Assembly (NCBI GenBank): GCA_035221665.1
Contig: CM069145.1
Location: 61,132,001 to 61,196,000, forward strand
Direction: 5' to 3'
Source of the DNA: Okamejei kenojei
Lineage: Eukaryota
Length of the DNA stretch: 64,000 nt
The notes beneath the pieces are model-generated. The model was not told the DNA's origin, made no database searches, and was given only the letters and a program-made list of their open reading frames with translations. The translations under genes were made by a program, and so were the position numbers. This document shows, one piece after another, positions 8,850 to 41,890 of this stretch (its first letter is position 1; every line of letters starts with the position of its first letter).

Positions 8850-11800
8850 TTGGGGGGGGAGGTTGGGAAGAGATGATTTGGGAGGGTGGGGGAGGGGGGC
8901 AGTGGGTGAGGGGGAGTGGGTTAGGGGCGGGGTGTTGGTGAGGGGGAGGGGATGGGGGTGCAGTAAGGGGGAATGGGGGTTTGGGGTGGGGTTGGAGGGT
9001 GGAGGGGGTGGGTTTGGTGAGGGGGGCTGGGTTGGTGAGGGGTTGGGTTGTGGTGAGGGTGTGTGTATTTATGATGCAAGGGCTGAGTTTGGTGAGGGAG
9101 CTGGGTTTGATAATGGGGGGCTGGGTTTGGTGAGGGGGGGGTGGCGTTGGTGGATGAAGGGTGGTGTGTTTGGTGTGTGGGTGGTTTGTGGGGGGAGGGG
9201 ATTTGGTTGGATGGTTTTGGTTGGGTGGGCTGGATTGTGATGGATTGGCTGGGTTTGTTGTGGTGGTTTGAGGGGTTGGATTGGATTAGGATTTTGGATT
9301 TGGTGGATTGGTGGATGTGGTGGATTGGGTGATGGGGGTGGGTGGGTGGTTTGGATGGTGAGGGGGGACTGGGTTAGTGGATAGATTGGTTTGTGGGGGG
9401 ATTGGTGGTGGATTGGCTGGGTATTGGATTTGGATTGGGTGGTTGTGTTGGTGGTGGAGGTGAGGGGGCTGGGTTTTTGGTGAGGGGGGGCTGGGTTTGG
9501 TGAGGGGGGGCTGGGTTTGATAATGGGGGTCCTGGGTTTGGTGAGGGGGGGCTGGGTTTGGTGAGGGGGGCTGAGGGGGGCTGGGTTTGGTGAGGGGGGG
9601 CTGGGTTTAAGTGAGGGGGGGCTGGGTTTCTGAGGGGGCTGGGTTTGAGGGGGCTGGGTTTTGGTGTGGGCTGTTGGTTGGGTGGTTGGTTTGGTGAAGG
9701 GGCTGGGATTGGTTGAGGGGGGCTGGGTTTGGGGTGAGGGGGGCTGGTTTGGTGAGGGGGGCTGGGTTTAGTGAGGGGGGCTGGGGGGGGGGCTGGGTTT
9801 AGTGAGGGGGGGCTGGTTTGGTGAAGGGGGGTGGGTTTGGTGAGGGGGGTGGTTTGGTGAGGGGGCTGGGTTTGGTGAGGGGGGGGTTTAGGTGAGGGGG
9901 GGCTGGGTTTAGTGAGGGGGGGCTGGTTTTAGTGAGGGGGGCAGGGTGGGTTTGGAGGGGGGGTGGGTTTGGTGAGGGGGGTGGGTTTGGTGAGGGGTGG
10001 TGGGTTTGGTGATGGGGGGGTGGGTTTTGGTGAGGGGGCTGGGTTTTGGTGAGGGGGTGGGTTTTGGTGAGGGGGGCTGGGTTTGGGGGTGGTGTTAGGA
10101 GAGGGGGTGGGTGGGTTTGTGTGAGGGGTGGGTTTGGTGGGGTGGCTGGGTTTGATGAGGGGGGTGGGTGAGGGGTGGGTTTGTGCGGGGGGTGGGTTTT
10201 GGTGAGGGGGGGTGGGGTAATGGTGTGGATGAGGGGGGATGGGTTTGGAGGGGGGATGGGATTGGTGCGGGGCATGGGTTTGTGAGGGGCTGTGAGGGGG
10301 GCTGGTTTGAGGTGATAAAGGTGTGTGGGTTTGGTGAGGGGGTGGGTATGGTAGAGGGGGGCCAGGGTTTTTGGTGAGGGGGGGTGGTTTACTGTGGGTG
10401 TTATTTGGTGAGGGGGTGGGTTGGTGAGGGGTGTGAAGGGGAGGGGGGCTGGGTTTGGAGGGGGGGGTTAGGGGTGGTTTGGGTTTGGTGATCGGTGGGT
10501 TTAGGTTAGTGGGGTGGGTTTGGTGATGGGGTGGTTTGGAGAGGGGGGCAGGGTTTGGTGTGAAGGGGTGGTGCTGGGGTGGGTTGGTGATGGGGGCGGG
10601 TGAAGTAGCATTGGTGATGGTGAAAGTGAGGTTTTGGTGAGGGGGTGGGTTAGGGTGGTGATAAGGTGGTTTGGTGATGGGTAGGGTTTGGTGAGGGGGG
10701 TGGGTGATTGGGGGGTGGGTGGTGAGGGGTAAGATGGGGGGCTGGGTGGTGAGGGGGGGTTTGGTGAGGGTGGGTTTGAGGGTGGGTTTGGTGAGGGATG
10801 AGGGGGTTGGTGAGGGGGGTGGGTTGGTGAGGGGGTGGGTTTGGTGAGGGGGGGGTGGGTTTGGTGAGGGGGGGTGGGGATGGTGAGGGGTGGGTTTGGT
10901 GGTGAGGGGTGGGTATGCGAAGGTCTGGTGAGGGGGGGCTGGTGGTGAGGGGGGGTGAAGGTGGTGCGGGGGCTGGGTTTGGTGAGGGTGTTTGGTGAGG
11001 GAGTGGGTGGGTGAGGGGTGGGTGGGTTTGGTGAGGGGGGGTGGTTGAGTGATGGGGTGGGATAGAGATTGGTGAGGGGGGGTGGTTAGGTGAGGGACGG
11101 TTTGGGTGATGAGGGGGTTGGTAGTGGGGTGGAGGGGGGGAGGGTTTGGTGAGGGGTAGTGTTTTGGTGAGGAGGTTTGGAGGGGGGTTTGCGGAGGGGG
11201 TGGTGAGGGGGGGTTTATGGGGAGGTTTGTTTGTGAGGGGTTTTGGGTTTGGTGAGGGGGTGGGTATGGGGTGGGTTGGGAGGGGGGTGATTTGGTGAGG
11301 GGGCTGGGAGGGGGTTTGGTGGTATATAGGGGGGTGGGTATGGTGCAGAGGTGATGGGGTGGTGTGGGGGCTGGGTTTGGTGAGGGGTGGGTTTGGTGAG
11401 GGGGGGAGGGGGGGTGGGGGGGTGAGGGGGGGGTGGGTCTGGAGGGGGGGGTTTGGTGAGGGGGGGATTGGTGAGGGGGAGGCTGGGTTTCTGGGTTGGA
11501 GGGGGTGGTTTGGGTGAGGGGTGTGGGTTTGGTGAGAAGGGGGGGCGGGATGGAGGGGCTTTGTTTGGGGGTGTGGGGTTTGGTGAGGGGGGTGGGTTTG
11601 GTTGAGGGGGGGGGGGTTTTGGTGAGGGGGGTGGGATTGGTGAGGGGGGGGTTTTTAGGTGAGCGGGGTGGGTTTTGGTGAGGGGGGTGGTGAGGGGGTT
11701 TGAGAGGGGGGTGGGTGGGGGTGAGGGGGTGGGTTTGGTGAGGGGGTGGGTTTGAGTAGGGGGTGGGTTTGGTGATGGTGTGGCTGGGTTTGGTGGGGGG

Positions 11801-13490
11801 GGGGCTGGGTCTGGAGGGGGGTGGGTTTGAAGGGGGGGTTTGGTGAGGGGGGGTGGGTTGGTGAGGGGGGGTAGGTTTGGTGATGGTAGGGGAGGTTTGT
11901 TTGTGGGGGGGGTGAGGGGGGGTTTGGTGGAGGGTGGGGCTGGGTTTGGTGATGGGGTGGGTTGGTGATGGGGGAGGGTTTGTGAGGGGGTGGTTTGGTG
12001 AGGGGGTGGGTTTGGTGAGGGGGTGGTTTTGGGTGAGAGGTGGTGGTAGGGGGGTGGGTTTGGTGAAGGGGGGGGGCAGGGTTTGGTGTGGGGGGGTGGG
12101 TTTGGTGATGGGGAGGGGGGTAGGGGGTTCTGGTGAGGGGGGGGAATGGGACCAGGGTTTGGTGAGGGGGGTTTTTGGTGATGGGGGGTTTGGTGGGTGG
12201 ATTTTTGGTGAGGGGGTGGTTGGAGTGTTTTTACGTGAGGGGGGGGTGGTTTGGTGAGGGGGGGGCTGGGTTTGGTGAGGGGGGGCTGGGTGTGATGTGT
12301 TTGGTGAGGGGGTGGGTTTGGTGAGGGGGGGTGGTTTTTGGGGGTTTTGGTGAGGGATATTTTCGGGGGGTGGGTTTGGTGAGGGGTGGGGGGGGTGGGT
12401 TTGGTGAGGGGGGTGGGTTTGGTGGTGGGTGTTGTTGGTTTGTTAGGGAGGGTGGGTTTGGATGAGGGGGGGTTTTGGGTTTGGTAAGGGGGCTGGGTTT
12501 GGTGATGGGATAGGGGGCTATTTGGTTAAGGTGATGGGGGCTGGGTTTGTGAGGGGGGTGGGTTTGGTGAGGGGGTGGGTTTGGTGGAGGGAGTGGGTTG
12601 TGGCTGGGTTTGGTAAGAAGGGGGCTGGTTTGGTAAGGGGGGTGGGTTTGGTGAGGGGGGGCTGGGTTTGGTGAGGGGGGCTGGGTTTGGTGGGTGGGCT
12701 AGGGGGGCTGGGTTTGTTGGGGGTGGGGTTTGGTGATGGTGAGTTTGGTTAAGGAGGGGGGGGGCTGGGTTTTGGTGAGGGGGCTGGTTTGGAGAAGGGG
12801 GGCTGGGCTTTTTGGTGTTTGGTATGGGTAGTGGTGATGGGGTGGGTTTGGTGAGGGGGGGTTTTGGTGAGGGGGGTGGGTTTGGTGAGGGGGAGAAGTG
12901 GGTTTTGTTGAGGGGTGGGTTTTGGTGAGGGGGTATGGTGGGTTTGGTGATGGGGGGTGGTTTTGGAGAGGGGGTGTTTGGGGGGTTAGGTGGGGGTCTT
13001 GGTGAGGAGGGGGTGGGTTTGGTGAGGGGGGAGGGGATTGGTGAGGTGGGGGGGGGGGTGGGTTTGGTGAGGTGGTGGTTTGGTGAGGGGGGTGGGGTTG
13101 GTGAGGGGGGGTGGGTTGGGTTTGGTGAGGGGGGTGGGTTTGGGTTTGAGGTGGGGTGGGGCTTTAGGTGAGGGGGGTGGGTTTGGTGAGGGGGCTGGGT
13201 CTCAATACTGGTCTCTCTATGGTGAGGGGCTGGGTTTTGGTGAGGGGGCTGGTCTGGATGATGGTCATGGGTTTGGGTGAGGGGGCTGGGTTTGGTGGGT
13301 TTTGGTGAGGGGGCTGGTTTGGTGATGGGCTGGGTTTGGTGAGGGGGGGCTGGGTTTGTGATGGGCTGGGTTTGGTGATGGGCTGGGTTGGTGAGGGGCT
13401 GGGTTTAGTGAGTGGCTGGGTTTGGTGAGGGGGCTGGGGTTTGTGATGGGCTGGATTTGGTGATGGGCTGGTGTTTGGTGAGGGGGGTGG
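8850..13490 (+). repeat. G/T-rich degenerate minisatellite, ~18-20-bp unit GGGTTTGGTGAGGGGGG(CT)
   Basis: The motif is reiterated directly over ~4.6 kb with extreme G-strand skew. Confidence 0.95.
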
Positions 13491-13524
13491 TACACACTGA
13501 CTCTCCCCCTCTGTGTGCCCCCAG

Positions 13525-13953
13525 ATGTCGGGGTGCATGTCAGGCCCGCCCGGTGATGTCGGGGATCAGCAGGCCTGGGTGCTGCGGTGGTTTGGTGAGT
13601 GGGGGCTCGGTGAGCGTGAGGAGTTCCTGGCGGAGCTGCTTGACCGGGTGGTGCCGGGGAAGGTGACGCAGTTACCGGGGTCACTGGGGCGCTCAGCCTG
13701 ACTCCTACACGGGGGGGTACGGCGGATCCCGGAGAGGGAACCATCCAGCTCCACGCCCCGGTCCCCCTCCATCTTCCGCTGCCAGCTGCGCCTGTGGGAC
13801 GGATGGTTCCGGAACTGGAGCGTTGACCAGCGCAACCTGCTGCTGCACCGGCTGGAAGAGCGAGCACCGGACTTCACCGACCGCCTGTACCGGGAGGTGG
13901 CACAGACCGCTGACCCACCGCCGGGGTCTGCCACTGACCGCGGACCCCCGTGA
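13525..13953 (+). CDS. C14orf119: C14orf119 homolog (DUF4508), single coding exon; in-frame TGA at 13699-13701 as assembled
   Basis: QQAWVLRWFGEWGLGEREEFLAELLDRVVPGKV...PSIFRCQLRLWDGWFRNWSVDQRNLLLHRLEERAPDFTDRLYREVAQTA matches recalled human C14orf119 (CILHWFANWSGPQRERFLEDLVAKAVPEK...PPSIFECQLHLWDQWFRGWAEQERNEFVRQLE..EPDFVAKFYQAVAATA). ATG directly follows a polypyrimidine/cag acceptor (13522-13524). Stop at 13951-13953. Confidence 0.92.
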
Positions 13954-13984
13954 CTCCCCCGCGGGGTCTGGCCCACTGTCTGCT

Positions 13985-14440
13985 GGGGGGGGGGGATAAG
14001 TGTTTGGGGGTTGGGGTAGAGGTGTATGGGGGTGGGGGGTGAGGTGTTTGGGGGTGGGGGGGTGAGGTGTTTGGGGTGGGGGTGAGGTGAGGGGGGTGAG
14101 GTGTTTGGGAGTGGGGGTGAAGGTGGTTTTGGAGTTGAGGGGGGTGAGGTGAGGGGGTGAGGTGAGGGGTGAGGTGTTTGGGGGTGGGGGGGGTGAGGTG
14201 ATTGGGGGGTGGGGGTGAGGTGTTTGGGAGTGGGGGGGGGAGGTGTTTTGGGGTGAGGGTGTGAGGTGTTTTGGGAGTGGGGGGTGAGTGTTTTGGGGTG
14301 AGGGGGGTGAGGTGAGGGGGGTGAGGTGAGGGGTGAGGGGTGAAGGTGTTTTGGGGTGGGGGGTGACGTGTTTGGGGTGTGGAGGGTGAGGTGAGGGGGG
14401 TGAGGTTTTGGAGTGGGGAGGGTGTGTGTTTGGTGGGGGG
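13985..14440 (+). repeat. G-rich simple repeat (GGGGTGAGGTGTTTT-like) in the putative C14orf119 3' UTR
   Basis: Reiterated ggggtgaggtgttt motif. Confidence 0.85.
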
Positions 14441-23716: not shown

Positions 23717-25316
23717 TAACAAGATGGCCGCGCCGGGCGCCCCCCCCCCCCCCCGCCCCCCCCCCCCCCCCCCCCCCGCGCCCCCTCCCCGCGCCCCGCA
23801 ACACGATGCCCCCCCCCCCGCCCCCCCCCCCCGCCCGCAACACGGATGGCGCGCCCCACTGCCACGCGCCCCGCAACAAGATGGCCGCGCCGCTCGCCCC
23901 CTCCCGCGCCCCGCAACACGATGGCCGCGCCCCCTCCCCGCGCCCCGCAACACGATGGCCGCGCCCCCTACCCGCGCCGCAACAAGATGGCCGCGCAGCC
24001 CCGGCAACAAGATGGCCGCGCCTCCTCCCCGCGCCGCATCCTCCCCGCGAACAATAAACCCACACACAACAAAAATGGCCCCCCCGCTCCCTCACACCCC
24101 GCGCCCCGCAACAAGATGCCGCGCCCCCTCCCGGCCGCCAACTATCGATAGTGCCGCGACTCCCCTCCCGCCGGCCACCGCAACAAGATTGGCCGCGCCC
24201 TTCCCGCGCCCCGCCAACAAGATGGCCGCGCCCCCTTCACCCGCGTCCTTCCCCGCACCACACGATCGGCCGCCTCCCCGCGCGCGCAACAAGATGGCCT
24301 GCGCCCTCCTCCCGCCGCCCCGCAACAAGTGGATGCGCGCCTCCTCCACGCGCCGCCGCCCAACAAGATGGCCGCGCCCCGCAACAAGATGGCGCGCCTC
24401 CTCCCCGCGACCCCTTGCAACAAGATGCGCCGGCCTCCTTCCCGCGCCCCGCAACAAAAGTGGCCGCGCCTCCTCACCGCGCACGCACCCGCAACAAGAT
24501 GGCCGCCGCCTCCTCTCACGCGCCCCGCCCAGATGGCCGCAGACCCCCCTCCCCGCGTGGCCGCGCCCCCTCCCCCGCCCCCCCGCACAAGATGGCCGCG
24601 CCTCCTCCACGCTGCCCCAGCTAACAAGACGCCCCGCAAACAAGATGCCGCGCCGCAGCAAGATGGCCGCGCCCCGCCAACAAGATGGCCGCGCCTCCAC
24701 GCGCCCCGCCCTAAACAGGATGGCCGCCGCCCTACCTCACGCGCCCCGCGCGGCCAACATGGCCGCCGCCCCTCGCAAGATGGCCGCGCCTCCTCTCTAC
24801 GCCGGCCAGTTGGCCGCGACCCCGCAACAAGATTGGGCGGCGCCTCCCCCCCCGCAACAAGATCGCCCCGCCAGCAAACAGGCCGCGCCCTCCCCAAGAT
24901 TGCCGCGCCCCTCCACGCAACAAGATGGGCCCCCCCCGCCAACACGATTGGCCTCCTCCACGCGCCCCGCAGCAAAATGGCCGCCCCGCAACAAGATGGC
25001 CGCGCCTCCTCCCCGCGCTCCCGCAACAAGATCGGCAGCCGCCCGCCCCCGCAACAAGTATGGCCGCGCCTCCGCATCCACGCGCCCCCGGGCAGCAAGA
25101 TGGCCCGCGCCTACTCCACGCTCCCCGCAACAAGATGGCCGCGCCCCCCTCCCCGCGCCCCGCAACAAGATGGCCGCGGCCCCCGCCCCGCGCCCCCGCA
25201 ACAAAAAGGCCGCGCCTCCTCCCCGCGCCCCCGCAACATGATGGCCGCGCCTCTCCCCGCGCCCCGCAGCAAGATGGCGCCCCGCAGCAAGATGGCGCCT
25301 CCGCTGCCCGCGCCCA
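23717..25316 (+). repeat. CpG-rich minisatellite, ~30-35-bp unit CCCCGCAACAAGATGGCCGCGCC(T)CCTCCCCGCG, with a YY1 consensus in each unit
   Basis: Dozens of (C)AAGATGGCCGC copies, all in the same orientation. Confidence 0.9.
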
Positions 25317-34214: not shown

Positions 34215-35935
34215 CATAACCATATAACCATATAACCATATAACAATTACAGCACGGAAACAGGCCCTCTCGGCCCTTCCAGTCCATGCCGACCATTTGT
34301 TTTCCCCTAGTCCCATCTACCTGCACTCAGACCATACCCCTCCATTCCCTTCCCGTCCATATACCTATTCACTTTACTTTTAAATGTTAAAATCGATCCT
34401 GCCTCCACCACTTCTGCTGGAAGCTCATTCCACACAGCCACCACCCTCTGAGTAAAGAGGTTCCCCCTCACGTTACCCCTAAACTTCTGTCCCTTAATTC
34501 TCATGTCATGCCCTCTTGTTTGAATCTTCCCTACCCACAATGGGAAAAACGTATCCATGTCAACTCTGTCTATCCCTTTCATCATTTTAAAGACCTCAAT
34601 CAAGTCCCCCCTTAACCTTCTGCGCTCCAAAGAATAAAGACCTAACTTGTTCAACCTTTCTCTGTAACATAGTTGCTGGAACCCTGGCAACATTCTAGTA
34701 AATCTCCTCTGTACTCTCTCTATTTTGTTGACATCCTTCCTATAACTAGGCGACCAAAATTGTACACCATACTCCAGAATTGGTCTTACCAATGCCTTGT
34801 ACAATTTTAACATTACTTCCCTGCTCCTATATTCAATGCTCTGATTTATAAAGGCCAGCACACCAAAGGCTTTCTTTACCACTCTATTTACATGCGATTC
34901 CACCTTCAGGGAACTATGCACAGTTATTCCTAGATCCCTCTGTTCCACAGCATTCCTCAATTCCCTACCATTTACCATGTACGTCCTATATTGATTTGTC
35001 CTGCCAAGATGTAGCACTTCACACTTAACAGCATTAAACTCCATCTGCCATCTTTCAGCCCACTTTTCCAAATGGCCCAAATCTCTCTGTAGACTTTGAA
35101 AATCTACTTCATTATCCACAACACCACCTATCTTAGTATCATCTGCATACTTACTTATCCAATTTTCCACCCCATCATCCAGATCATTGATGTACATGAC
35201 AAAACAACAGTGGACCCAACACAGATCCCTGAGGCACCCCACTGGTCACCGGCTTCCAACCTGACAAACAGCCATCCACCATTACTCTCTGACATCTCCC
35301 ATTCAGCCACTGTTGAATCCATCTTGCTACTCCGCCATTAACACCAAAGATTGAACCTTCTTAACCAACCTTCCATGGGGAACCTTGTCAAAGGCCTTAC
35401 TGAAATCCATATAGACAACATCCACTGCTTTACCCTCATCAATTTCCCTAGTTACCGCTTCAAAAAATTCAAGAAGGTTTGTCAAACATGACCTTCCAGG
35501 CACAAATCCATGTTGACTGTTCCTGATCAGACCCTGTTTATCTAAGTATCCTTTCCATTAATTTGCCCACCACTGACATCAAACTAATAGGTCTATAATT
35601 GCTAGGTTTCTTCTTTGAACCCTTTTTAAACAATGGAACAACATGCGCAGTACGCCAATCCTCCGGCACTATTCCCGTTTCTAATGACATTTGAAATATT
35701 TCTGTCATAGCTCCTGCTATTTCTACACTAACTTCCCTCAATGTCCTAGGGAATATCCTGTCAGGACCTGGAGACTTATCCACTTTTATATTTTTCAAAA
35801 GTGTCAGTACTTCCTCCTCTTTGAATCTCATAGTTTCCATAGCTACTCTACTTTTTCCCCTTAACTCACATAGTTCAATATCCTTCTCCTTGGTGAATAC
35901 CGAAGAAAAGAAATTGTTCAATTGAACAAAAGAAA
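34215..35935 (-). mobile_element. Young CR1 copy (ORF2 RT to 3' end); its 5'-truncated end abuts the Ig constant exon
   Basis: ORF 34307..35242 with KYADDTKIGG; ORF 35538..35921 with KSPGPDRIFPR...NYRPISL. Confidence 0.95.
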
Positions 35936-35949
35936 TTGTTCAATTGTTC

Positions 35950-36212
35950 AAGCGTAGCCACACAGCCACCCTCGAGTGTGTGCTCTCTGGTTTCTACCCG
36001 GACCTCATAAACCTCACTTGGGAGAAAGACGGAGCCCCGATCTCCTCCACTACCAGCGCTACACCGACTGCTCTGGAGCAGGGGGGGACTTTCAGTGCCA
36101 GCCACCACCTGACTGTGAGTTCAGAGGATTGGAAAAAAGGCTGTCTTCGGCTGTACAGTGTCCCATCCCCCCTCCAACACCAGTATCAGCCGGGAAGTGA
36201 AAAGCTTTCAAG
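35950..36212 (+). pseudogene. Immunoglobulin heavy-chain C1-set constant exon, IgW CH4 / IgNAR C3 type; 5'-truncated and frameshifted
   Basis: TATLECVLSGFYPDLINLTWEKDGAPISSTTSATPTALEQGGTFSASHHLTVSSEDWKK, then a shift near 36139, then AVFGCTVSHPPSNTSISREVKSFQ with a phase-1 donor G|gtacgg. Canonical Cys-Trp-Cys, GFYP and CxVxH motifs. PTALEQ and SHPPS are recalled from IgNAR C3 and IgW CH4. Strand A and the acceptor are replaced by CR1. Confidence 0.88.
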
Positions 36213-36339
36213 GTACGGTGCTGGCATTCACTCTAATGGTCACATCTTTTGCCCCGTCAGGGCCTGGCACGTTTAGCACTGAAGGACAGGTGTTGCAGTG
36301 TGTGAGTGAGTGAGTGATAAGCAAGAGGCCTGAACTAGG

Positions 36340-36760
36340 GTCAAGAATAGTCAAGTGTTTTATTGTCATATGAATATGTAAACATAGTGCATAATGGGGG
36401 AAGAGAAAAAAATAAAAAGTTCAATAAATAACAAATATAGTGCAATAATAATGTAGTATTTTGCAGCTGAGAGCTTATTCATTGTTGCGTTTAGTAACCT
36501 GATGGCTGCAGGGAAGAAGCTGTTCCTGAACCTGGACGTTGCTGTGTTCAGGCTCCTGTACCTTCTTCCTGATGGCAGTGGTGAGAGGATGGTGTGGGTC
36601 CTTGATGATTTTGGCTGCCTTTTTGAGGCAGAGACTGCGATAGATCCCTTCGACGGTGGGGCGGTCAGAGTCAGTGATGGACAGGGCAGTGGTCACAACT
36701 TTTTGTAGTCTTTTTCGCTGCTGGATGTTCAAGTTGCCGAACCAGGCCACGATGCGACCA
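36340..36760 (-). mobile_element. Rex1/Babar-type LINE 3' fragment
   Basis: AWFGNLNIQQRKRLQKVVTTA...CLKKAAKIIKDPHHP. Confidence 0.8.
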
Positions 36761-38015
36761 GGACTAGGCCACTATGCAATATATTTCTGTGCTTTCACAA
36801 CTTCAGTTTATTCCAAAACACCTCAGTGGCCAGGACACTGAGAAGACCAAGCCTGCTGTTCCTCAACATTAGTGTCACAGGGTCAGCCCACTCATTGTTG
36901 TCGGCTCTCTGTGTGTGGCATCTCAGACTAGTTGTCTTGCTGCTAATTGGAAGAGTGAGGTCGAGTATTTGTATTTGTACAATTGTTTGTCGATACTGGA
37001 CAAGAGGCCCATCAGAATGTCCATTGTGTGGATGGAGCTGGGTACAAGCATGTTGGCATTGGAATGATCATGGAGTCATAGATTTATACAGTACGGTAAC
37101 AGGCCCTTCGGCTCAGCTTGCCTACCAAGCTGCCCGATCTACACTAGTCACGTCTCCCTGTGTTTGGCCCAAATCACTGATCATCTCATGTTCATAAGTG
37201 ATAGGAGCAGAATTAGGCCATTCGGCCCATCAAGTCTACTCTGCCATTCAATCATGGCTGATCTATCTGTCCTTCCTAATCCCATTCTCCTGCCTTCTCC
37301 CCTTCACCAAGACTAATCAAGAATCTATCTATCTCTGCTATAAAATGTCCATTGAGTGGAGCTCCACAGCCTTCTGTGGCAATGAATTCCTCAGATTCAC
37401 TACCCTGTGATTAAAGAAATTCCTCCTCATCTTTCAAGAGGAACATCCTTTAATTCTGAGGCTCTGGTCCTGGACTCTCCCAACAGTGGAACCATCCTCT
37501 CGACATCCACTCTATCCAGGCCTTTCACTATTGGTCCTATCCATGTACCTGTCCAAATAACCTTTAAACATTGTTATAGTCTCTGCCTCAACTACCTCCT
37601 CCCGCAGCACATTCCATGTACCCAGTGCCCTCTGTGTGAAAAAGTTGCCCCTCAGATTCCCATTAAATCTGTCTCCCCTCACCTTAACCCCATGTCCTCT
37701 GCTTCTTGATTGCCCTACTCTGGGTAAAGGGGCCTGGTTGTACATCTGTGTGTATTACCATTGCACTCTGTCAAATGTGGTTATCTCCTCTTGTGAAATT
37801 GTGTCGATAGTAACAAGACTATGTTGCTGTTAGTTGAGCAGTTGCTACTCTTGAGGAAAGGGAATGTCTCTCCAGAAAGTCTATTGCTATTCAGTGTCTC
37901 GTGCGGACTGTTGTTCCACGGTTCACATTACTCAGCCAGGGAGAGAACGTCAACTGAAAATGAAAATGGATTCCAGTCCAAATCCATATCAAACATCACT
38001 TTTTGGTTAAACATA

Positions 38016-38451
38016 ACCGGCTGCATCGTGGCCTGGATCGGCAACTTGAGCGTCCAGGAGCGGAAAAGACTGCAGAAAGTTGTGAGCACTGCCCAGTCCA
38101 TCATCGGCTCTGACCTCTCCACCATCGAGGGAATCTATCGCAGTCGCTGCCTCAAAAAGGCTGCCAACATCACCAAGGACCCACACCATCCTGGCCGCAC
38201 ACTCATCTCTCCGTTGCCATCGGGAAGAAGGTACAGGAGCCTGAAATCTGCAACATCCAGGTTCAGGAACAGCATCTTCCCCACAGCCATCAGGCTATTA
38301 AACACAACATCAAACAAACTCTGAACAATAACAGCCTATTGCACTTTATCTGTCTATTTATTGTGTATATATATGGTCTATGGTATATAGACACACTGAA
38401 CTTTTATCTCCTGTTCTGTATTAAGTGACAATAAAACTCTCTTGACTCTTG
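38016..38451 (+). mobile_element. Rex1/Babar-type LINE 3' fragment with probable aaacat TSD
   Basis: GCIVAWIGN...PLPSGRRYRSLKSATSRFRNSIFPTAIRLLN; tail aataaaactctcttgactcttg. Confidence 0.85.
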
Positions 38452-38585
38452 AAACATCAATTACCAAAGTTTCAGAGAACCTGCAGTTGTATGAAAACGT
38501 CTGTCAGGTCTGATCCAGCTTGAAGCCTGCGGAGACCCCACAAGAGGCTCCGTGTGTGTTGTGTCAATGTAACCTATCAATGTTC

Positions 38586-38591
38586 AATAAA
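38586..38591 (+). terminator. Candidate polyA signal between Ig CH and TM exons (possible secretory-form 3' end)
   Basis: AATAAA in unique sequence, followed by GT-rich 'gtgtggtgttggagttggtgtt'. Confidence 0.35.
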
Positions 38592-39199
38592 GAATATACG
38601 TGTGGTGTTGGAGTTGGTGTTCCCTGTTGGTGCGTTTTGCGAGGTGTTGCCAAGTTGGTGGGGAACAGGTGACCTGGATCTAAGATTACACATTGTCTTT
38701 CACTATATACATTTCTACAGATTATGTAAATATACATGTATTAGTCTCCTCCGTCCAAAGAATAGAACATTCTGAAGGAAGGTCTCGACCAGAAACATCA
38801 CCCATTCCTTCTATCTAGAGATGCTGCCTGTTCTAGTTAATCCAGCATTTTGTGTCTATCTTTGGTGTAAACCAGCATCTGCAGTTCCTTCCCACCCGCT
38901 CAAAGTCAATTTTATTCGTCACATACTCCCGAAGGTGCAGTGAAATGAATTTGCCAGCAGCGATACACTTAAAAAGAACACACAATACACAATAAGATTT
39001 AACACAAACATCCACCACGGAATTCTTCACTGTGGTGGAAGGCACAAAGTTCAGCCAGTCCTCCTTGTTCACCCGTGGTCGTGGCCATGAACGGTCGAAC
39101 ACACTCTTGGAGAGGAGGAATGGGTGATGTTTCGGGTCAAGACCCATCTTCAGATGCCTTGAAGTGCCCGAATCGGCACTTTCCTACCGGAGTACGCGG

Positions 39200-39515
39200 C
39201 CTCAGGATGTTGTAGGCCACAGGCTGGCGGTCCGAGCTCTTCAGGATGTTGTAGGCCACAGGCTGGCGGTCCGAGCTCTTCAGGATGTTGTAGGCCACAG
39301 GCTGGCGGTCCGAGCTCTTCAGGATGTTGTAGGCACAGGCTGGCGGTCCGAGCTCTTCAGGATGTTGTAGGCCACAGGCTGGCGGTCCGAGATCTTCAGG
39401 ATGTTGTAGGCCACAGGCTGGCGGTCCGAGCTCTTCAGGATGTTGTAGGCCACAGGCTGGCGGTCCGAGCTCTTCAGGATGTTGTAGGCCGCAGGCTGGC
39501 GGTCCGAGCTCTTCT
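39200..39515 (+). repeat. 39-bp tandem repeat, about 8 copies (caggatgttgtaggccacaggctggcggtccgagctctt)
   Basis: Near-perfect direct copies. A single related unit occurs in reverse at ~50370-50415. Confidence 0.95.
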
Positions 39516-40917
39516 CCGGCGAGGGTTCCCAGGCTCCGGATGGTAACTTTGAACCTGGTTCCTGATTAACCTTTCTGGTCTTTAAAATATTCAAAGCTAA
39601 TGAAGAGGGAAATCAGTTTTGACCATCTTTGTGAATGCATTTGATAAACTCATTCAGAAAGTGGAAAGATACAGAAGGAAGAGCCAGTGATGAGCTTTGC
39701 CTGTGGCAATGTGTTCAGGGCTGAAGCTGTTCACTATATTTATTGATAGTTGCGATGTCGGATAGAAAGCCACACGACCACGTTTGCCGTTCACACAAGG
39801 CAAGCAGACGTGTCAACAGAACATCTGGATGGTGGCATTGTTGAGATGAGGATGCATGAAGTGAATGGGCAAATCTGTGGCAAGAACCGGCTCTTTAAAT
39901 GTGTGTGGACCACACCCAGAGGAGACACTGGCTGGCAGGGAGGGTTGAACAGGGGGGGGGGGGGGGGGGAGAAACGTTCTTAGTCTCTTCCTTTTGGGGG
40001 GACGCGACTTTTCTTGTCGTATCCCCTGTCTCCGTCTCCGTTTGCGCTGAGGCCTATCGCGGAGCTGGCAGCCTCCAACTTTAACTGCGACCGACCCGAG
40101 GCTCCGGAGGCAGAGCCAGCCAGGACTTACCAGCGCGGGGCTGGCCGACCTCGGGGCTGCAGCGGGTTCAGGCGTTCCGCCGGCCCGACTCGGAGCTGTG
40201 GCGGCTTTCCGGTGGTGGTGGCAGTGACTTCAGAGGCCCGGCCGCGGGCCCAGTGGACGACATCGTCGGGAGCTCGCAGGTCACAGGTTGGTGACCTGTT
40301 TTTCCGGAGCTCCCGCGGCGGCAGCTGCGTCCGCTGGACTGGAAGGCGGCAGCTTCGACCGCCCCGGGCCGCGGAGTTGGACCGGCCCGCTCGCGGAGCG
40401 CGGTTCACCAACGGGACTTATTTACATCACCCGGTGCGGTCACAACATCGGAGGCCCGGGTCACCTCAGCGCAGAGGAAGAGGAAGAAGGGAAGAGACAA
40501 AGACAAGATTTTTGCCTTCCACCACAGTGAGGAGGTGTCTGGTGAACTCACTGTGGTGGATGTTAAATATGTGTTTATTGTGTGTTCTGTTATTTACTAT
40601 ATGTATGACTGCAGGCAACGAATGACAATAAAGTTTTCCAAGTTTTCCAAGTTCCAAGTTCCAAGTTCCAACAGACCTGGACTCGCCAGGATCAATTACA
40701 AAGTGAGAAGATGCTAAATAATGATGTTAATGGATGTGGGGGAAACGTCAGCTCTGTGGAGCTGGTGATAGATCTCCACAGTATCATTGAACGGTGGAAC
40801 TGACCCGAGCCTCCTGTCTTCCTGTCCTCCTGTTAGCTTCATTTTATTCACATGTTGTTGATCTTCACAAAACATCCGTGGCAAACTAACTGTCTCACCT
40901 TCGCGTTTGTCCTGAAG

Positions 40918-41057
40918 CTGACACAGACTGGACAGGAGAGGAAGGGAAGGAGGAGCCGGGGGACTTGGATGGAGATGAAAATGTGTTCGCAGTTGCTGCC
41001 TTCGCCATCCTGTTCATTATCAGTTTCCTCTACAGTGCCTACGTCACCGTGGTCAAG
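40918..41057 (+). CDS. Immunoglobulin heavy-chain transmembrane exon TM1 (IgW-like), intact
   Basis: Branch point actaac, pyrimidine tract and aag acceptor. Phase-1 frame (A)DTDWTGEEGKEEPGDLDGDENVFAVAAFAILFIISFLYSAYVTVVK ending at a gtaacg donor. Acidic spacer plus CART motif FxxLFxxSxxYSxxVTxxK. Phase matches the CH exon donor. Confidence 0.92.
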
Positions 41058-41179
41058 GTAACGATGACCAAGGACAGAGATACTTTGTGACCCCCCCACA
41101 CTGTGACTGTCCATTCCTCACTACACTGTGTTCTCTGACTGTCCAATCCTCACCACACTACGGCCCACAGATGATGCAG

Positions 41180-41890
41180 TTAAAGTATTGTGTTCAGTTC
41201 TGGGCACATTGTTATTAGGAAGATGTCAACAAGCTGGAAAGGGTACAGAGAAGATTTATATGTTGCCAGGTTATCAGGGTCTGCTATAGGGAGAGGTTGA
41301 GTAGGCTGGGACTCTAATCCTTGGAGCGCAGGAGGATGAGGGGTGACCTTATGGGGGTGTATATAATCATGAGAGGAATAGATCGGGTAGATGCACAGAG
41401 TCTCTTGCCCAGAGTAGGGGAATCGAGGACCAGAGGACACGGGTTCAAGGTGAAGGGGAAAAAATGTAATAGGAATCTGAGGGGTAACTTTTTCACACAA
41501 AGGGTGGTGGGTGTTTGGAACAAGCTGCCGGAGGAGGTAGTTGAGGCTGGGACTATCCCAATATTTAAGAAACAGTTAGACAGGTGCATGGATAGGACTG
41601 GGTTGGAAGGCTGTGGGCCAAACACAGGCAGGTGAGACTAGTGTAGCTGGGACATGGAAACAATTCATGAAATCAATATTCATACTGCTGGGTTGTAAGC
41701 TGTCCAAGCAAAATATGAGATGCTATTCCTCCAATTTGTGTTTAGTCTCACTCTGACAATGGAGGAGACCTGGTCTGTGGGAATGGGAAGGAGAATTAGT
41801 GGTTGGCAACCGGGAGATCAGGTAGGTCCTGGCGGGCTGAGTGACGGTGCTCAGCGAAACGATCGCCCAGCAGGACAGGCAGCATCTCTG
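41180..41890. mobile_element. CR1 3' fragment (+41180-41655) and Penelope GIY-YIG end (-41660-41890)
   Basis: LERRRMRGDL...RTRGHGFKV...FFTQRVVGVWNKLP; minus strand KLEE*HLIFCLDSLQPSSMNIDF. Confidence 0.85.

Follow-up and report, generated by a model that had tools for sequence, protein, structure and literature searches.

In the genome of the skate Okamejei kenojei, positions 61,132,001-61,196,000 of contig C15 (64,000 nucleotides, called the window here) contain a degraded piece of an immunoglobulin W (IgW) heavy-chain cluster. The contig end lies about 0.6 Mb away. The IgW proteins agree with a placement among skates, judged by their identity to Leucoraja and Rhinoraja models. The piece is a dead, isolated pseudogene fragment derived from IgW, and its constant-domain (C) exon is the IgW exon CH4', a duplicate that stands behind CH6 in complete clusters, not canonical CH4. 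Very probably it was copied as DNA from the 3' end of such a cluster and inherited the adjacency of a CH4-type exon and a transmembrane (TM) exon from intact clusters with a CH3'-CH4' exon pair that is likely spliced into the membrane form. The window copy itself has no function; its value is the layout of batoid IgW clusters that it exposes. An earlier note on the letters of the window had reported a CH4 followed directly by TM at 35950..41057. Both exons in this interval are real, while the colinear fragment continues to 41870.

The 3' part of the CH4' exon occupies 35949..36212 (plus strand). It scores as a C1-set domain (Pfam, E=1e-13, window 35926-36276) and ends, as noted earlier, at a phase-1 donor, with GT at 36213-36214. 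The acceptor and the first 52 bases are gone. A genome search with this exon returned ten matches: the exon itself, three at 94%, two noisy ones at 87-88%, and four at 78-81%. The 94% matches are CH4' exons located after CH6, and those at 78-81% are canonical CH4. Against the three CH4' exons, 13-15 substitutions were counted in 266 bases (~95% identity), against canonical CH4 55 in 266 (~79%). The encoded protein shares 81 of 87 residues with CH4'' of an intact cluster and 60 of 87 with CH4; the value for CH4 of the Squalus IgW membrane complementary DNA (cDNA) is also 60/87. The former label CH4 thus applies to the type of domain and not to canonical CH4 (5% versus 21% divergence). A tree of C exons with 50 rows, as proposed in the earlier note, joined the window exon to CH4' of skate IgW (support 86/85), outside the skate clade of exons preceding CH5 (100/100).

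The assignment to IgW stood, with C domain and TM1 both of IgW type and nearest to IgW. An IgNAR exon was ruled out: identity to the IgNAR-like C3 on C15 is 37/81 (46%, against 93% for IgW CH4''), and the IgNAR-like rows form a separate branch of the tree. The top match of the window exon in the PDB is UrIg2 (PMC12227049), yet the match is distant, with 33 bits for its best stretch, and falls far short of the 93% identity to IgW CH4'. Two-exon tandem duplications with gene conversion are described for UrIg2, and the two-exon tandem duplication is a likeness to the IgW clusters. The TM1 exon (40918..41057, plus strand) has intact AG/GT ends and an open frame. Its DNA is 91-93% identical to four paralogs; identities to the Pristis and Rhinoraja models (84%) and to a Squalus IgW TM cDNA piece (P0017, 62-65%) are lower. 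Codon changes amount to 5 replacement and 7 silent ones in CH4' and to 9 and 1 in TM1, a mixed signal of selection.

Four separate lesions disable the copy: the acceptor is lost, the frame is broken, TM2 is deleted, and no other IgW exon lies within 100 kb of the window on either side, V and CH1-CH3 included, so that it fails as a gene. The earlier suspicion that the copy is dead was borne out, as was the replacement of the 5' end of the exon by a young CR1 retroposon. This 5'-truncated CR1 (34216..35922, minus strand) was recognized by a reverse transcriptase match (RVT_1, Pfam), and other copies are 98-99% identical. Its truncated end adjoins the immunoglobulin (Ig) fragment, and the family sequence runs on past 35922 with different letters. 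Between CR1 and the exon lies a 26-bp filler (35923..35948, no strand assigned), which reads as a fold-back and re-copy of the CR1 end with a 22-bp tandem; filler and exon have 3 bases in common at their join. The letters suggest that the CR1-exon join is a repair-type junction, and filler of this kind resembles that of polymerase-theta end joining. Neither the 5' part of CH4' nor CH3' was found beyond the CR1 in the window.

A frameshift had been placed near 36139. It is real, although its site is a 2-bp deletion at 36142..36143 (plus strand, by alignment with four paralogous exons), outside a homopolymer, and not a length change in the A-run 36133-36138. Splicing of CH4' to TM1 in the window meets a stop at the junction because of this deletion; the TM exon, described earlier as intact and phase-matched, keeps its open frame and its AG/GT ends and loses the in-frame splice. 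Contigs of four sequencing runs over 35890-36330, which drop rare variants, showed only C10-type letters (two extra bases) at the deletion, and among the contigs listed none bridged the CR1-exon join. The deletion on its own is not certain, given the indel noise of the assembly in clusters 1 and 3 of contig C10; the other lesions suffice.

Downstream of TM1, position 41180 of the window is followed directly by sequence which in cluster 2 of C10 lies 5.7 kb beyond TM1, hence a 5.5-kb internal deletion, including TM2, with its junction at 41180..41181 (no strand assigned). TM2 is present in all four paralogous loci. This exon, which encodes VQQ-stop, a tail also present in shark models, was found with a looser pattern after a strict pattern had matched nothing; the genome search gave six matches, none of them on C15, and TM2 is absent from the window. 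The distal colinear piece (41181..41870, plus strand) consists of two fused repeats, also located 7.3 kb past TM1 in cluster 3. Among 40 candidates scored out of 6292, no locus other than the window and two on C10 matched this fused-repeat marker over its whole length. Apart from chance scraps, V, CH1-3, CH5, CH6 and CH3' are absent from 264 kb (the window plus 100 kb on each side; tblastn, E<=1), a search in which D segments were not addressed separately. The earlier failure to see V or CH1-3 upstream thus held over the larger span, and a search for CH3' found none on C15.

Intact IgW clusters on C10 have the order V-D-J-CH1..CH6sec-(CH3'-CH4')x1-2-TM1-TM2. Cluster 1 (3.003-3.034 Mb) comprises leader, V, J, CH1-CH2-CH3-CH4-CH5 and CH6 with a secretory tail, followed by CH3'-CH4' and TM1. 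Cluster 2 (3.050-3.084 Mb) is built in the same way with two CH3'-CH4' pairs. In both, V and J are split, and the DNA that separates them carries the heptamers and nonamers of recombination signals. Every listed C and TM exon of cluster 2 is open, its C junctions are all phase 1, and polyadenylation signals follow the CH6 stop. With leader, V, recombination signals, J, CH1-CH6, secretory tail, TM1 and TM2, it has the parts of a functional IgW minicluster; its V shows a possible frame break. A third tail, cluster 3 (C10:3,203,365-3,219,735, L026-L028), carries two CH3'-CH4' pairs, TM1 and TM2. It is indel-rich and lies directly behind an assembly gap, no CH1-CH6 was found in the 93 kb before it, and it is possibly a badly assembled third cluster. 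Outside the window there are four copies of TM1. In three of them no C exon stands closer to TM1 than CH4', at a distance of 5.7-5.9 kb, in line with the earlier note's guess that the layout may reflect live paralogs, and in two of these three CH5 and CH6 stand upstream of CH3'-CH4'.

The long interval between the two exons corresponds to an ordinary CH4'-TM1 intron (36213..40917, plus strand), colinear with clusters 1-3 and with the cluster on contig C376. Bar repeat insertions, window 35949-41180 and the CH4'-TM1 region of C10 clusters 1, 2 and 3 match in the same order, and the whole of 35949-41870 is colinear with the 3' end of the intact C10 clusters, intron included. Private insertions occur in the window intron; one of them, 38896-39558, contains a 39-bp array (39202-39514). 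Its divergence is 8-9% to the C10 clusters and 7.6% to C376, while the C10 copies differ among themselves by 1-2%. The earlier note had proposed either a loss of CH5/CH6 by deletion or a hard-wired, four-domain CH4-TM membrane antibody. CH5 and CH6 are indeed absent between the exons: tblastn (E<=1) gave no match to them in 36300-40900, and the sole match there, 26 residues of a minus-strand CH4 (42%, E=0.011), was taken as chance, so that the earlier statement of no further Ig domain stands. Shark membrane forms with two or four C domains also exist, and arise by alternative splicing according to PMC4279169. Yet the exon belongs to the copies behind CH6, CH5 and CH6 sit upstream of it in clusters 1 and 2, and the interval aligns with an intron that never held CH5/CH6; therefore none were lost from it. 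Both forms of the proposal are rejected, and their joint probability is considered negligible. Intact IgW clusters place the TM exon after a CH4-type exon (CH4'), an arrangement that the earlier note itself had named as making the layout ordinary.

Introns are kept in the fragment, and it would therefore have been duplicated as DNA. The copy would represent an old paralog lineage, with an intron divergence like that of C376, and would have eroded later, the join to the young CR1 being the latest step. That the fragment is the end of a C10 cluster which the assembly misplaced or fused wrongly is very improbable. The site is gap-rich (six gaps in 264 kb) and 0.6 Mb from the end of C15, and the Ig clusters of this assembly carry indel noise; against this stand the intron divergence, several times that among the C10 copies, the private insertions, and the distance to the nearest gaps (18 kb and 33 kb). 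The C15 site could instead have held a whole IgW cluster of which the fragment, not a separately copied piece, is all that is left, a variant of the preferred explanation that differs only in history. It is a serious possibility, held at somewhat below even chances. The fragment is as divergent as the complete C376 cluster, the CR1 join cuts through mid-exon, so that further sequence must have preceded it, whether in the donor or at this site, the same contig has IgNAR-like clusters at a distance of 4.1 Mb, and the same CR1 family also struck the IgW cluster at C10:5.07 Mb. On the other side, no trace of V, CH1-CH6 or CH3' is left in 264 kb, and at least 23 kb would have vanished.

The C10:5.07 Mb cluster (C10:5,049,000-5,078,000, L036-L039) has a 1.8-kb CR1 of this young family at the 3' end of CH4 and a stop in the CH6 tail, and its homology stops just before CH3'. 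The window was rejected as its lost tail: that cluster differs from cluster 2 by 3-8% (mostly 3-5%), the window by 8-9%. A single CR1 insertion common to both was also dismissed, as the 5' ends differ.

The spare CH3-CH4 pair on the membrane side is a real feature of batoid IgW clusters. The comparative rows outside this genome are gene models, shark cDNAs and one assembled skate contig. A Rhinoraja model (P0037) has the order CH5-CH6-CH3b-CH4b-TM, a Pristis model (P0003) the order CH5-CH6-(CH3b-CH4b)x2-TM. In Mobula birostris, 14 models fall into one 90% cluster, of which ten end with CH4-CH3b-CH4b-TM, three with CH5-CH6 and one with CH4-TM; three pairs of TM and secreted models are identical up to the branch point. 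A tree of CH3-CH4 pairs (27 rows, chosen from the models in hand) separated sharks from batoids (100/99) and divided the batoids into a secretory-side (93/87) and a membrane-side group (98/94). Both groups include rows from skate, sawfish, devil ray and electric ray, i.e. four orders. A protein search for short TM-bearing skate transcripts yielded only two stingray models.

It was proposed from these exon orders that the secreted messenger RNA (mRNA) of live clusters would end at CH6. CH6 carries the stop, and the secreted form needs no in-frame donor in it; the exons behind it are therefore reachable only by skipping it. By the simplest path, the membrane mRNA would skip CH5-CH6 through a CH4-CH3' splice between phase-1 ends and would have CH4'-TM1-TM2 at its end, with six or eight C domains in all. 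For this skate, we infer membrane use of CH3'-CH4' from the sequence. Four contig sets compared with cluster 2, from runs that look like DNA, gave mostly repeat matches and, among those listed, no exon-exon joint. Probably, if by no wide margin of confidence, a single duplication of CH3-CH4 in the batoid ancestor put one of the two copies after the secretory exon, to act as a membrane-side module, of which the window would be a fossil. If so, receptor and secreted antibody from one gene would differ in their last two domains (CH3'-CH4' versus CH5-CH6), and tandem repeats would lengthen the receptor stalk and leave the secreted form unchanged. Ray membrane IgW would be built by splicing in a separate exon pair, not only by skipping CH5-CH6. 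It would be the second case, after the coelacanth, of receptor and antibody evolving separately from one gene, in IgW/IgD, the least understood ancient antibody class. The membrane-side exons would also offer unique primers and epitopes for telling IgW-bearing B cells from secreting cells.

Several observations weigh against this proposal, and some of them fit a different one, in which the duplicated pairs behind CH6 have no use or serve additional secreted forms, and CH2 or CH4 is joined directly to TM in the membrane form, the way it is in sharks. The fourth TM1 locus, C376, runs from CH6 to TM1 without CH3' or CH4', keeps most of the same intron and retains TM1 and TM2. P0026 and P0005, both from Mobula, join the ordinary CH4 to TM. 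Together with C376 they show that the pair can be dispensed with. Narcine models stop after CH4b without TM. In the skate genome, indels of 1-3 bp disturb CH3' and TM1 of cluster 1 and noise affects cluster 3, which leaves cluster 2 as the single clean one. Apart from the shark cDNAs and the skate contig, the comparative rows are automatic gene models, and those of Pristis and Rhinoraja are read-throughs that show exon order, not use. The 'b' pair type also occurs upstream of CH5 (Rhinoraja P0011, Pristis P0003/P0006). An approximately unbiased (AU) test rejected the named 9-row 'b' clade (p=0.028) because a Pristis pair preceding CH5 is nested inside; this pair resembles a CH3b-CH4a mosaic. 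Rays are not alone in having long membrane forms: Chiloscyllium models reach ten C domains. On the other hand, open frames and splice sites are retained in cluster 2, the post-CH6 CH4 of the window is 86% identical to that of the Rhinoraja model and 80% to that of Pristis, and the pair is included in 10 of the 11 TM models of that Mobula birostris cluster. Unused pairs are therefore regarded as unlikely, without being a negligible case.

The proposed membrane-side module was compared with known systems. Nurse shark IgW has six to eight C exons per cluster according to PMC4279169, PMC5192425, PMC6795676, bioRxiv 2022.06.22.497154 and PMC12227049, taken together, and the membrane forms with two and four C domains are those cited above. 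IgW of nurse shark and spiny dogfish, as covered in PMC4279169, PMC5192425 and PMC6795676, resembles the skate clusters in domain types, TM1, the short TM2 tail and CH3-CH4 duplications. It differs in that Chiloscyllium punctatum models have no membrane-side pair, while the skate has an extra pair behind the secretory CH6; the TM models of this shark are identical prefixes of a longer CH5-bearing isoform in 4 of 4 tested, i.e. a classical skip. Coelacanth IgW1, as described in PMC5192425, has secretory exons, then four tandem C3-C4-C5 triplets, then two TM exons. With C10 clusters 1 and 2 and with the Pristis and Rhinoraja models it has in common that duplicated C exons follow the secretory exon and precede TM. 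Four triplets in a translocon-like locus nevertheless contrast with one or two CH3-CH4 pairs in batoid miniclusters. The batoid pair likely arose independently, judging from its nesting among elasmobranch domains in trees without coelacanth rows. Only the Mobula gene models point to membrane-transcript use as in a coelacanth-type layout. No description of a post-secretory CH3-CH4 pair in batoids was found in the literature searches; figures or supplements of the primary IgW papers may already show the exon order of skate or shark.

Ig clusters of cartilaginous fish are spread over chromosomes, with dispersed clusters and pseudogenes (PMC5192425). The window fits this pattern of scattered copies, birth and death, and stray IgW tails on C602 and C154; it differs in keeping only a 5.9-kb 3' fragment. 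The two stray tails (C602:36,058-39,490 and C154:368,260-370,000) consist of TM2 and downstream DNA without TM1 or a C exon (40 kb each). Stray Ig copies of this kind are termed orphons. IgW clusters with an in-frame germline-joined VDJ occur at C376:222,202-222,549 (L049; CH1-CH6 and no CH3'/CH4', a TM1 with a 6-bp deletion, and a +1 shift where CH4 ends) and at C376:26,762-27,109 (L086). Two five-domain IgNAR-like clusters lie at C15:56.94-56.95 and 57.05-57.06 Mb, 4.1 Mb from the window, with IgW on C10. Isotypes of the Ig heavy chain are linked in four other elasmobranchs according to PMC12227049; the separation of IgNAR and IgW on C15 and C10 may be real dispersal or an effect of scaffolding. 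Weaker CH6-like matches were found on C2, C3, C8 and C24. Between three and seven CH3-CH4 pairs (3-7) stand in tandem in IgW models from sawfish, devil ray and bamboo shark that bear the names 'titin-like' or 'uncharacterized' (P0001-P0005, P0035, P0041-P0052).

Elsewhere in the window, 23,740-25,300 is a G+C-rich satellite with a unit of 34-36 bp. It holds all 14 window copies of AAGATGGC(G/C)G, a motif that resembles a YY1 site. A degenerate G-rich tandem repeat of 17-18 bp with strong strand skew extends over about 5 kb at 9,459-14,400.

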